Shown in pieces: positions 41,097-43,268 of a stretch of DNA of 64,000 nt. Source of the stretch: Fidelibacterota bacterium (GTDB taxonomy: Bacteria; Fidelibacterota; UBA8477; JABMPR01); contig JABMQQ010000174.1 in assembly GCA_013202495.1 (NCBI GenBank), positions 3,142 to 67,141 on the forward strand, written 5' to 3'. The notes under the pieces are model-generated. The model was not told the DNA's origin, made no database searches, and saw nothing but the letters and a program-made list of their open reading frames with translations. How positions within the stretch are numbered: the first letter of the stretch is position 1; each line of letters opens with the position of its first letter. The position numbers and the translations under genes are program-made.

Positions 41097-42644
41097 CTAC
41101 GGTTTTTTCGATACCATCTTTGCGTGCCACATATCAATAATTTTATTCTCAGTTGCACTTGGGAATCGGTTTTGTACACCTTTGACTTGTACTATTTCAT
41201 TCCCCTGCGGATTTATTTCGACCGTAAGTATTTTTTCTTTATTACAGGAAACCGAGACTATTGCAGAATTCTTTGAAGCACATCGAGCAGCATAACTTTC
41301 AACACAATGGTGTAACTTTTGGCTTTCTTCAAATAGTTGTTTCCCAGAGGTTAGTTCAAGAAAACTCCAATTCTTGTAGTATTCATCTACATAATCCCAA
41401 TTCCAGCCATGAGAACTCCAATAATAATCAATCCATGGAGAATCTCTGTTTTCAATATACTGCTGACTTGCAAAAAGAGTTCTTCCAGATGTCCTACCAC
41501 TCCAAGTAAAACTTTGATCATTATGTCTGTCTTCTGTGAATCTGTGCATTGCCCATTCTAGGATCAGATCTGCATCGTCTTCAGTGAGATCATCACGATG
41601 TTTCATGAGCCACAGCACAGTACTTTCCCAAAATACTTTGTATTCGGTATCTATGGATGTTTCCGTAGGATCTTCTATGTAGGCAGCATTTCTAGATATT
41701 CGATTGAATTCAACTAACGACCCACCAAGGCACATGATCTTAGAATATATTGCAGCTTGGACAGGTGAAAGTCCTTCTGGTGCGTCCAAAAGATGTTTTG
41801 TGAATTGCTTCCCAATAGACCAATTGAAGAGAGGGGCAGCCTTTTTAATACTTCCTCCCTGGGCTAGGATAATGTAAAATATTAACCACTTGTATCTCAC
41901 AGCTGAGAATGGCACAGTCCATTCGGACATTAAGAATTTGGGTGTTGGGTATATTTCGAATAAGTGCCTCACAAAATGGAGGAAAACATCTGAACCGATG
42001 GGTTTTACCCATGTCTTAGGACTTCTCACCCAGAATGGAGAAAGTAGTAAGCATAAAAGGAATGGACTGTCGTACAGGTTGTTATTGTATTGTTGATAGC
42101 GCTCTTCTTCAAACCCACCAAGATTAAGATTCTCAGGAATTTGTTGTTCAACCTCTTCGTTGTTTGCTAAATCAAATATTATCTGGAGATCATCTTTATC
42201 TTTAGATAAGGGTAGATCATTTGGATCAAACCACCCATCTATTAATCCCTTGATATGTTTTGCTAGATGACCTTCGATTTTTTGGGCTGCCCCAGGCATT
42301 CCCCCTTCTTGCATTTTATCCGGAATTATATCCTTAATCGGGTCACCATCACCCGATATTGGCCAACCAATCTTTTCGAATGCAGTTGTAAATTGATTAT
42401 CCTGGTGAATTGCAGTCAGGTGTGCCCAAGTTTTGTAAATGGCATAATCAGTTGGAGAAGCGGGCTCATCGATATCCCAATAGTAATCACCGTAATAATT
42501 ATCACGTTCGTATTCCTCAGGAGATATCAGGTGATCATCAGAAACTTCTGCCCAGCGATTACGTCGGTATCGTTGAGTGTGTTCACCTGACCTAAGCGGC
42601 CGATGCCAATTTATTACTTTTTTCCCATCGGATTTCTGTTTCAT
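41097..42644 (-). CDS. PcfJ-domain protein
   Basis: C-terminal LTSGKQLFEESQKLHHCVESY...LTVEI...IVQVKGVQNR; likely start MKQK at 42644 after AAGGA. Confidence 0.8.
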   Translation of the reverse strand: MKQKSDGKKVINWHRPLRSGEHTQRYRRNRWAEVSDDHLISPEEYERDNYYGDYYWDIDEPASPTDYAIYKTWAHLTAIHQDNQFTTAFEKIGWPISGDGDPIKDIIPDKMQEGGMPGAAQKIEGHLAKHIKGLIDGWFDPNDLPLSKDKDDLQIIFDLANNEEVEQQIPENLNLGGFEEERYQQYNNNLYDSPFLLCLLLSPFWVRSPKTWVKPIGSDVFLHFVRHLFEIYPTPKFLMSEWTVPFSAVRYKWLIFYIILAQGGSIKKAAPLFNWSIGKQFTKHLLDAPEGLSPVQAAIYSKIMCLGGSLVEFNRISRNAAYIEDPTETSIDTEYKVFWESTVLWLMKHRDDLTEDDADLILEWAMHRFTEDRHNDQSFTWSGRTSGRTLFASQQYIENRDSPWIDYYWSSHGWNWDYVDEYYKNWSFLELTSGKQLFEESQKLHHCVESYAARCASKNSAIVSVSCNKEKILTVEINPQGNEIVQVKGVQNRFPSATENKIIDMWHAKMVSKKP

Positions 42645-42695
42645 AGCATTATCCTTGTCGTAAAGGCTCAATTTAATCTTACTGTGAAACAATAA

Positions 42696-43146
42696 TAGCA
42701 TTAGAAGTCTGGCAGGCTTTGATCAGCTGAGGTCTAACTCAGCTACCCTGCAAGACGGCCTCGAGTTTGCCCTTTCGGGTCACGATATTCCCGCCAGTCT
42801 GTCGCCAGATAATTGCGCACAGGAGTTACCTGCATTGCATCCCAAGCGAAACGCTCAATTGCTTGAGTCGCCCCTCGGTGTACGATTAAGTCCTGGGAGG
42901 CTCTTGAAACCTCCGTGACTTGAAATACCGATCCATGACTTATCTCATGATTAAACCATCCTTGTATCCTAGCGTTACCGCCAGTGCCTCTTTGGGCGAT
43001 AGCGAAACCACTTGGCCTCGCTTGTCAGATGTATACATCTGATAGGAATACCCTACGTGTGCGCCTTGAATATTGCACATTTCCGTAGGACCAGAGATGA
43101 GTAGTTTTTCCTCAGCTTAAGGAACGCCTACTCTCTTCTAATGCTA
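42696..43146 (-). ncRNA. Candidate large structured non-coding RNA (~450 nt)
   Basis: No credible ORF; 12-bp terminal inverted repeat; many hairpins; three GNRA tetraloops and a G-U pair that work only on the minus strand; TATAAT immediately upstream. Confidence 0.7.
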
Positions 43147-43152
43147 ATTATA
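43147..43152 (-). promoter_or_regulatory. -10 box for the candidate ncRNA/PcfJ transcript
   Basis: TATAAT on the minus strand; no consensus -35. Confidence 0.5.
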
Positions 43153-43268
43153 ATCTTCTGATTGTTATTCTTATTCCAGGAAATATGGGATATTGAAAAC
43201 CCACCGGTGAGCTGGATGCTTACGGTAGATAATAGCAACTATCTGCGAATCAGTATCAAGATTAAATT

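Follow-up and report, generated by a model that had tools for sequence, protein, structure and literature searches.

A 64,000-nucleotide stretch of DNA from a Fidelibacterota bacterium (contig JABMQQ010000174.1), here called the window, holds a non-coding interval dense in hairpins at positions 42696-43146, followed on the minus strand by a gene for a PcfJ-domain protein. What does this interval encode, and does it belong to its neighbour? An earlier note on this DNA had proposed a structured RNA coupled to PcfJ. The interval was found to encode a large, strand-specific structured RNA that was previously uncatalogued and has no match in Rfam. Its gene is self-contained, with its own upstream block and, in most loci, its own terminator hairpins. 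It is located at the boundary between an operon encoding a DUF5659 protein and a primase-helicase and a co-directional, highly variable, defence-rich array. Taken as a whole, the sequence comparisons describe what is probably a trans-acting, compactly folded non-coding RNA gene on an integrative mobile element found in a single genus of Candidatus Neomarinimicrobiota.

Fold and strand of the RNA

The RNA gene and its principal parts, in window coordinates, are as follows.

42696-43146, minus strand: structured non-coding RNA gene, 451 nt between the outer bases of the closing stem P1, with 22 helices and 144 consensus pairs
43135-43146, minus strand: 5' strand of P1, UAGCAUUAGAAG, invariant in 16 of 16 sequences; its partner is 42696-42707
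42696-42707, minus strand: 3' strand of P1, CUUCUAAUGCUA; 12 of 12 pairs retained across 16 sequences
43025-43042, minus strand: helix H8, UCAGAUG-UAUA-CAUCUGA, a perfect palindrome of 16-18 nt in which loop positions 1 and 4 covary
42975-42978, minus strand: GNRA loop of H10, GUAA (GCAA in three homologues)
42859-42862, minus strand: GNRA loop of H16, GCAA in the window and GUAA in most homologues
42802-42805, minus strand: GNRA loop of H19, GCGA (GUGA or GUAA in homologues)
42773-42776, minus strand: GNRA loop of H20, GAAA, invariant

The perfect 12-bp inverted repeat reported in the earlier note (TAGCATTAGAAG at 42696-42707 and CTTCTAATGCTA at 43135-43146) was recovered, as were the seven hairpins named there (42721-42747, 42770-42779, 42854-42867, 42896-42914, 42969-42984, 43025-43042 and 43052-43089), each of which is a helix of the covariation-supported consensus. 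An inward extension of the stem by GUAGGC/GCCUGC did not hold, as these bases belong to H2 (GAGUAG/CUACUC, with two covarying pairs) and H4 (UCUGGU/GCCAGA). The RNA region is indeed richer in G+C than its flanks (0.50-0.535 versus about 0.38-0.44). The minimum free energy of the minus strand was -181.1 kcal/mol, compared with -134.5±6.5 kcal/mol for 100 shuffled sequences (z -7.13; none of the shuffles equalled it), and the plus strand folded with a z of -4.72.

Covariation, on which the earlier note had let its proposal depend, was assessed in 16 distinct full-length sequences (mean identity 91%) using an RNAalifold consensus. Standard pairs make up 99.4% of the 2303 pair cells formed by the 144 consensus pairs in the 16 sequences. 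Compensatory, double-sided changes are present in 20 of the 144 pairs (53 cells), compared with 8.2±1.8 pairs and 14.7±3.5 cells in 500 shuffled controls, none of which attained the observed values. When the consensus was slid along the alignment (six controls), only 1-3 pairs covaried and pairing dropped to 35-42%. The pair cells include 367 G·U cells (16%) versus four A·C cells, and eight pairs have G·U in every one of the 16 sequences; if the sequence were read from the other strand, no more than 83.5% of the cells would pair. The excess of G·U over A·C thus identifies the minus strand as the RNA strand, as the earlier note had argued. In one homologue (L022), two U-A pairs of P1 have become U·G, for which pairing is possible solely on the minus strand. 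Four terminal loops, one more than previously noted, are GNRA, and all sequence variation in them stays inside the GNRA pattern. The fold is strand-specific and tertiary-structure-like, and it is constrained more strongly than its neighbours: the RNA of the window is 86% identical to that of the L013 group of loci, compared with 70-73% for the adjoining DUF5659/primase DNA and 66% for the primase protein.

The palindromic loop of H8 has a pattern of its own. Its first and last positions (alignment columns 126 and 129) are U..A in nine sequences, C..G in six and U..G in one, giving the loop forms UAUA, CAUG and UAUG. Since closing a 2-nt loop within one molecule is impossible, this covariation suggests intermolecular pairing of RNA copies or a symmetric protein site, and H8 is a candidate for a kissing-loop or dimerization signal, or for such a protein site. 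An optional 16-nt hairpin is present in nine of the 16 sequences. A coding role for the region was considered and rejected; antisense open reading frames (ORFs) of 83-137 aa overlap the RNA in nine loci, but are broken to 40 aa in the window.

With respect to expression, contigs of a relative (~90% identical over 230 nt) in one marine metatranscriptome run (X1) cover 42842-43146 and no flank. These contigs hint, weakly, that the stretch is expressed and that a 5' end lies at the stem. One X1 contig stops at 43146, the first base of the stem, and runs on into RNA-sense H5/H6 sequence. This junction looks like a complementary DNA fold-back at the 5' end of the RNA; as a single contig, it proves nothing.

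Could the interval function as DNA instead? It might be the relic of a miniature inverted-repeat transposable element (MITE) or another element with terminal inverted repeats, a replication origin or single-strand initiation structure used by the adjacent primase-helicase, or a recombination site for the cargo slot. Such a site would account for the perfect, invariant 12-bp terminal inverted repeat, for the replication module that adjoins it, for the switch of cargo exactly at the RNA 3' edge and for the many contigs, from metagenomes and metagenome-assembled genomes (MAGs), that end within 10-120 nt of the RNA borders. Breaks of the last kind, however, are expected at any conserved block amid strain-variable flanks. 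A DNA element would also leave the G·U pairs, near-lack of A·C and GNRA behaviour unexplained, as well as the branched architecture of 22 helices in place of one long hairpin and the RNA-library contigs that match this stretch alone. A dispersed repeat, named in the earlier note as one finding that would count against its RNA-PcfJ module, was looked for specifically; the stretch is single-copy in its own genome (3.95 Mb, 86% complete), and no direct repeat is formed by its flanks, AAT and TTA. A DNA-level role is therefore considered quite improbable.

The search for known families used Rfam 15 (4227 models, among them RNase P, tmRNA, group I and II introns, riboswitches, ROOL, GOLLD, HEARO, OLE, raiA and IMES). 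At gathering thresholds, no model matched anywhere in the 64-kb window, and the novelty claimed in the earlier note stands in this respect. With permissive filters over 42500-43400 (E <= 10), only chance-level matches were obtained: SNORD23 with 15.3 bits (threshold 64) and DUF805b with 11.1 bits (threshold 35.6), at E-values of 3.4 and 6.5. No tRNA or tmRNA was found in the window. A divergent bacterial RNase P RNA (RF00010) was rejected, since the genome carries a normal copy (G000:C23:8883-9374, 230 bits) and the candidate RNA is present in just five of the 22 other genomes of the genus. A literature search on non-coding or structured RNA of Marinimicrobia/SAR406, with supplements outside its scope, found nothing on such an RNA.

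A retron was likewise rejected. Like retron msr-msd RNAs, the RNA lies inside inverted repeats in defence-rich mobile DNA, but no reverse transcriptase was found among its neighbours: in agreement with the earlier note, Pfam scans of ~80 neighbouring proteins (some small ORFs unscanned) revealed no RVT family. The only recurrent gene clusters seen next to the RNA are DUF5659 and the primase. Typical retron RNAs are also about half the size of this RNA.

Distribution and decayed copies

A BLAST search of 61 related genomes found homologues of the RNA in five of the 22 other genomes of the genus, three of them full-length and two relics of the 3' half, and in none of the 38 genomes of other genera. 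No related genome has more than one full copy. The named genome records that hold homologues are MAGs of Candidatus Neomarinimicrobiota (Marinimicrobia/SAR406). A scan of metagenome contigs with a two-part motif added 18 further loci, each confirmed by BLAST and 83-91% identical. From stem to stem, the RNA measures 434-452 nt among homologues. A covariance model of the core (R1, 166 positions) recovered the same six genus genomes, and none beyond, from 151 genomes of the phylum; with an effective sequence number of 0.77, this model generalizes poorly, and it matched none of 16 further loci on which it was tried. No BLAST match to the RNA was found among 50,697 phage and 72,556 plasmid records. 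When viral contigs were scanned with 15-mers, 77 loci came up, none of which contained the RNA by BLAST, and these were set aside as chance matches.

Eight contigs (L012, L021, L017, L011, L015, L026, L018 and L027) break ~2-115 nt from the borders of the RNA, or within the RNA itself at its position 225. Such breaks suggest a branching of assembly graphs at this conserved block, which lies amid strain-variable flanks.

Partial copies, decayed or remodelled, were located at L010 (G001:C168) 7880-8175, L011 (G019:C321) 2396-2605 and L017 1640-1941. These retain ~190-215 nt of the 3' part of the RNA beside a gene for an AAA_14-DUF4143 ATPase. The H15 loop of G001 and of L017 contains a common 34-nt insertion, doubled in tandem in G001, and both copies have repeated ~20-mers upstream. 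In G019, a local hairpin substitutes for the long-range 3' strands, and a lone 29-nt fragment of the 3' end lies at 1860-1888, directly behind the ATPase gene.

Fragments of this kind bring to mind a host RNA gene that serves, like a tRNA or tmRNA gene, as the attachment site of a genomic island. Variable DNA does begin within 6 nt of the RNA 3' end, and 3' halves of ~190-215 nt and the 29-nt end fragment are left in G001, G019 and L017, as insertion into such a gene might leave them. A host gene, however, would hardly be confined to five of 22 other genomes of the genus or be linked consistently to element genes. Further, the integrases in the window are 16-20 kb away and on the 5' side, and no direct repeat of the RNA 3' end was found in the window. 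The shared AAA_14-DUF4143 neighbour of the 3'-half copies and the common insertion of G001 and L017 point to one decayed lineage and not to repeated attachment scars. We hold this explanation to be very improbable.

The flanks of the RNA gene

Upstream of the RNA, the window contains the following features.

43147-43202, minus strand: conserved upstream block and candidate promoter, with the box CTGGAATAAGAATAA at 43165-43179 and TATAAT at 43147-43152
43203-48433: window-specific 5.2-kb stretch encoding a BACON 869-aa protein, an LPP20-like protein and a DUF697 protein, which separates the RNA from the DUF5659 spacer
48771-49052, plus strand: DUF5659 small protein (Pfam, PHROGs)
49024-51216, plus strand: fusion of an AEP primase with a DUF5906 (VapE-type) helicase (Pfam, PHROGs)

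The upstream block (~57 nt) is conserved at every locus for which upstream sequence was available. In addition, 57 nt of it are present without the RNA at L124 (G015:C109, 780-1040, minus strand), where, ~15 nt past the box CTGGTATAAGAAT, there follow a ribosome-binding site and a gene for a CxxC zinc-finger protein of 66 aa, with a terminator hairpin behind it. The RNA is one occupant of a generic promoter-terminator slot. The TATAAT was located by the earlier note just outside the stem, and it does lie there; its use as a -10 box is doubtful, because a start ~7 nt further on would fall inside the conserved closing stem and delete half of it. The box CTGGWATAAGAAT at 43165-43179 is a better candidate for the promoter, since it also precedes the protein gene at the RNA-less locus. 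The 66-aa protein itself resembles the N-terminus of TPR proteins often found behind the RNA.

Twelve loci combine a full-length RNA with 700 nt or more of upstream sequence, and at 10 of them DUF5659 and the primase-helicase are directly upstream of the RNA and divergent from it. In the window this pair of genes is displaced by the 5.2-kb stretch, and homologues of the 48434-48770 spacer abut the RNA directly at other loci. Within that stretch, 43269-46795 encodes the 869-aa protein, of secreted type (CarboxypepD_reg and four 'viral BACON' domains), and the LPP20-like lipoprotein; it was otherwise found only partly, in G018:C140. Further upstream in the window are genes for a PD-(D/E)XK exonuclease, DUF932, RadC and two tyrosine integrases, the latter 16-20 kb from the RNA, and this gene content identifies the setting as an integrative mobile element. 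Literature searches found no report on DUF5659, and none of TOTE with a primase.

Downstream of the RNA, three features matter for its relation to PcfJ.

41097-42644, minus strand: gene for a PcfJ-domain protein (515 aa; PF14284), a passenger between the RNA and the RNA's terminator
40944-40975, minus strand: strong intrinsic terminator of 14 pairs with a UUCG loop, behind PcfJ; single copy in the window
38120-38354, minus strand: conserved right flank of the variable slot, what is left of a small zinc-ribbon gene unit; it shares 81-88% identity with the distal ends of L002 and L003

The ORF at 41097-42701 (534 aa) contains the PF14284 PcfJ domain at residues 447-519 (E 4e-12; 46.6 bits, cut-off 25). 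Its probable start is the in-frame ATG at 42644, 51 nt past the stem and close to the spacing of ~50 nt given in the earlier note, and the N-termini of homologues begin at that methionine; the terminator that the note placed behind the gene is the one at 40944-40975. An AUG in the 3' strand of P1 is in frame with PcfJ here and with the TPR gene in L018 and L030. It was rejected as a start and judged to be due to chance, as homologues start later and other loci are out of register.

The earlier note had joined RNA and PcfJ into one module, a ribonucleoprotein or an RNA that regulates PcfJ in cis. In the window both are on the same strand, separated by 51 nt that contain no terminator, whereas one does follow PcfJ, and PcfJ is probably co-transcribed with the RNA. 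Such an inference from adjacency was tempting and is corrected here as wrong. Downstream sequence of 60 nt or more was available for 20 RNA loci, and of these the window is the sole one in which PcfJ comes after the RNA. A PcfJ profile built from 28 relatives detected the gene in two of 401 genomes of the phylum, the window's own and G291. The 22 other genomes of the genus gave no hit, although five of them carry homologues of the RNA. At G291, the only other PcfJ locus reached in the phylum (L014; G291:C91, 1200-4288), the gene lies 65 nt behind a PolyA_pol/HD (CCA-adding-like) nucleotidyltransferase gene, and no match to the RNA model was found. Relatives of PcfJ, moreover, occur in several phyla, whereas the RNA was found in one genus. 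We therefore regard a dedicated RNA-PcfJ module as barely credible. The position of PcfJ between the RNA and the RNA's terminator, together with the different genes that occupy this position at other loci, marks it as a passenger and not a conserved partner.

The fillings found between the RNA and the terminator, at least six in number and PcfJ among them, are distributed over the 20 loci as follows.

PcfJ: one locus (the window)
Zinc-finger/TPR proteins of three types: seven loci
A 200-aa protein: two loci
WapI-like immunity proteins: one locus
Nothing inserted, with the next conserved unit or the contig end following: the remaining loci

The PcfJ protein itself has few known relations. Twenty-nine full-length relatives were found at E <= 0.001, from several phyla by source names (Gammaproteobacteria, Horticoccus, Kofleriaceae, Leucothrix); the two closest, P0002 and P0003, are 57-59% identical and are encoded on 2.5-kb contigs. 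None was found in genome contigs with a single-protein search, and none in viral contigs with an alignment of eight sequences. Invariant residues among the 29 relatives include C447, C455 and E476, and H446 is nearly so. The ~440 N-terminal residues match no Pfam family, and the protein matches no PADLOC family. An AlphaFold2 model (mean predicted local distance difference test score 78.1) is helical in its N-terminal part and α/β in the C-terminal domain. A Foldseek search of this model against the PDB gave no match at E <= 0.001 among 321; the weak top matches (E 0.56-3; template modelling scores 0.13-0.38) are mostly GNAT, L/F-transferase or FemX folds. Literature excerpts retrieved on PcfJ-like/PF14284 proteins contain passing mentions alone, and the source of the proposal, mentioned in the earlier note, that PcfJ is GNAT-like was not traced among them.

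In 12 of the 20 loci, the first 50 nt past the stem contain a hairpin with a U-run, followed ~40 nt on by a terminator of 13-14 pairs. This second terminator is the one found after PcfJ in the window; elsewhere it lies ~80-110 nt past the RNA. Its homologues are directly behind the RNA in L002, L015 and L024, and also in L026, there past a TPR gene that precedes both hairpins. Behind the terminators, a zinc-ribbon cluster (cl3) recurs downstream in six loci. Between 42701 and 27167 the window has 17 ORFs of 110 aa or more, every one of them on the RNA strand, and in the other long loci, too, the downstream ORFs run in the direction of the RNA.

This arrangement raises the main rival to an RNA that works in trans, namely a cis-acting leader for processive antitermination, comparable to conAn2 (and, elsewhere, to put or EAR), that would secure expression of the cargo array. 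According to its published description, the conAn2 RNA belongs to the conAn antitermination system of Gram-positive conjugative plasmids such as pLS20 and pCF10; it is a large non-coding region of 260-600 bp on a mobile element, ahead of a long co-directional array that contains terminators, and in pLS20 the region lies inside a 20-bp inverted repeat (PMC8191782). The present RNA is likewise early in a long co-directional array (17 ORFs in the window) with terminators downstream: one or two hairpins follow it directly in those 12 of 20 loci, and in the window and L026 genes are inserted ahead of them. The likeness is one of description.

Several points, however, speak against such a leader. 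No co-directional gene for a conAn1-like small protein precedes the RNA, as judged from position: immediately upstream is either the divergent DUF5659 gene or an unrelated gene on the RNA strand. The second terminator has a stem of 13-14 pairs, and long stems are reported to resist antitermination (PMC10325885). The unit of terminator and zinc ribbon also occurs elsewhere in the same genome without the RNA, behind a different gene (L120; G000:C107, ~1200-1560, minus strand), which suggests that the downstream genes have their own control. Further, the hosts belong to a distinct phylum, and the RNA is more elaborate (22 helices, four GNRA loops), has its own terminator in most loci and is better conserved than conAn2, for which the same description gives 30-40% identity among plasmids; the inverted repeat of pLS20 is described there as dispensable, and the one here is invariant (PMC8191782). 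An antitermination leader is thus unlikely in our estimation. The second terminator was also considered as a repeated, attC-like cassette site and rejected, as there is one copy in the window and one more in the genome.

What the RNA may do

The reading preferred here, of an RNA gene whose product acts in trans, has a counterpart among the ornate orphan RNAs (ROOL, GOLLD, HEARO/omega RNA and OLE), which occur on phages and mobile elements. Like them, this RNA is several hundred nucleotides long, multi-branched, rich in GNRA loops and linked to mobile DNA; at most loci it has no dedicated protein beside it, and the palindromic loop may point to self-association. In contrast, none of their Rfam models matches it even at E <= 10, it is limited to one Marinimicrobia genus in the data searched, and neither an IscB/TnpB-type nuclease nor a tRNA cluster was seen among the neighbours examined. 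To our knowledge, few non-coding RNAs of bacteria exceed 400 nt and combine many helices with several GNRA loops and clear covariation. Of the large ornate RNAs of this kind that are known, the majority are ribozymes, cores of ribonucleoproteins or self-assembling RNA complexes.

By this comparison, the RNA would work in trans for the element as a folded scaffold, a ribonucleoprotein core or a catalytic RNA, possibly forming homodimers or oligomers through the palindromic H8 loop, and passenger genes such as PcfJ would borrow its transcription unit for their expression. A more specific version, which we offer only tentatively, is that it represents a new class of large tertiary-structured RNA, with a complexity like that of RNase P or ROOL, standing alone at the head of a defence hotspot; as a self-assembling RNA, a ribozyme or a ribonucleoprotein core, it may act in trans in replication of the element or in conflict with phages or host defences.

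Five observations weigh against a trans-acting RNA gene. The homologues are 83-91% identical and come from a single genus, so that covariation events are few and, with common ancestry, not independent. The closing stem, with its invariant 5' strand, and several joining regions show no variation, which a DNA-level site would also fit. The evidence for a transcript comes from assembled contigs of a relative in one run that possibly contains DNA. Some related DUF5659-primase loci lack the RNA (verified for G015:C109), and the element can thus dispense with it. Finally, a cis-acting leader would also account for the eight of 20 loci where a gene directly follows the RNA with no terminator in between.

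The phylum behind this RNA is marine and almost uncultured, and no other part of the element, whose adjacent slot exchanges defence genes, is as well conserved. Should the RNA prove to be a machine acting in trans, a new class would join a short list; if it is an antitermination leader, large-RNA leaders like conAn2 would reach into a distant, mostly uncultured phylum. Under either reading, the RNA marks a cargo hotspot in Marinimicrobia elements, which may be used for mining genes of defence and counter-defence.

The contents of this hotspot differ from locus to locus. In the window, 27167-38072 contains genes of conflict type (a DEAD helicase, GIY-YIG, NADAR, PRTase-CE and an SH3_3 protein). 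The DUF488 protein of the window corresponds to the PADLOC candidate PDC-M19A (E 1e-112), and an RNase T-BRCT protein to PDC-S48. The cargo at other loci includes PbeA (E 1e-201), PbeC (E 1e-197) or HerA. At L020 (3615-10445), a zinc-ribbon gene comes after the RNA, then a near-complete Pbe (Dnd-related) defence set with PbeA and PbeC, and behind this set lies a gene for a protein that combines an RNA polymerase alpha-CTD with a sigma-70 region 4 domain.

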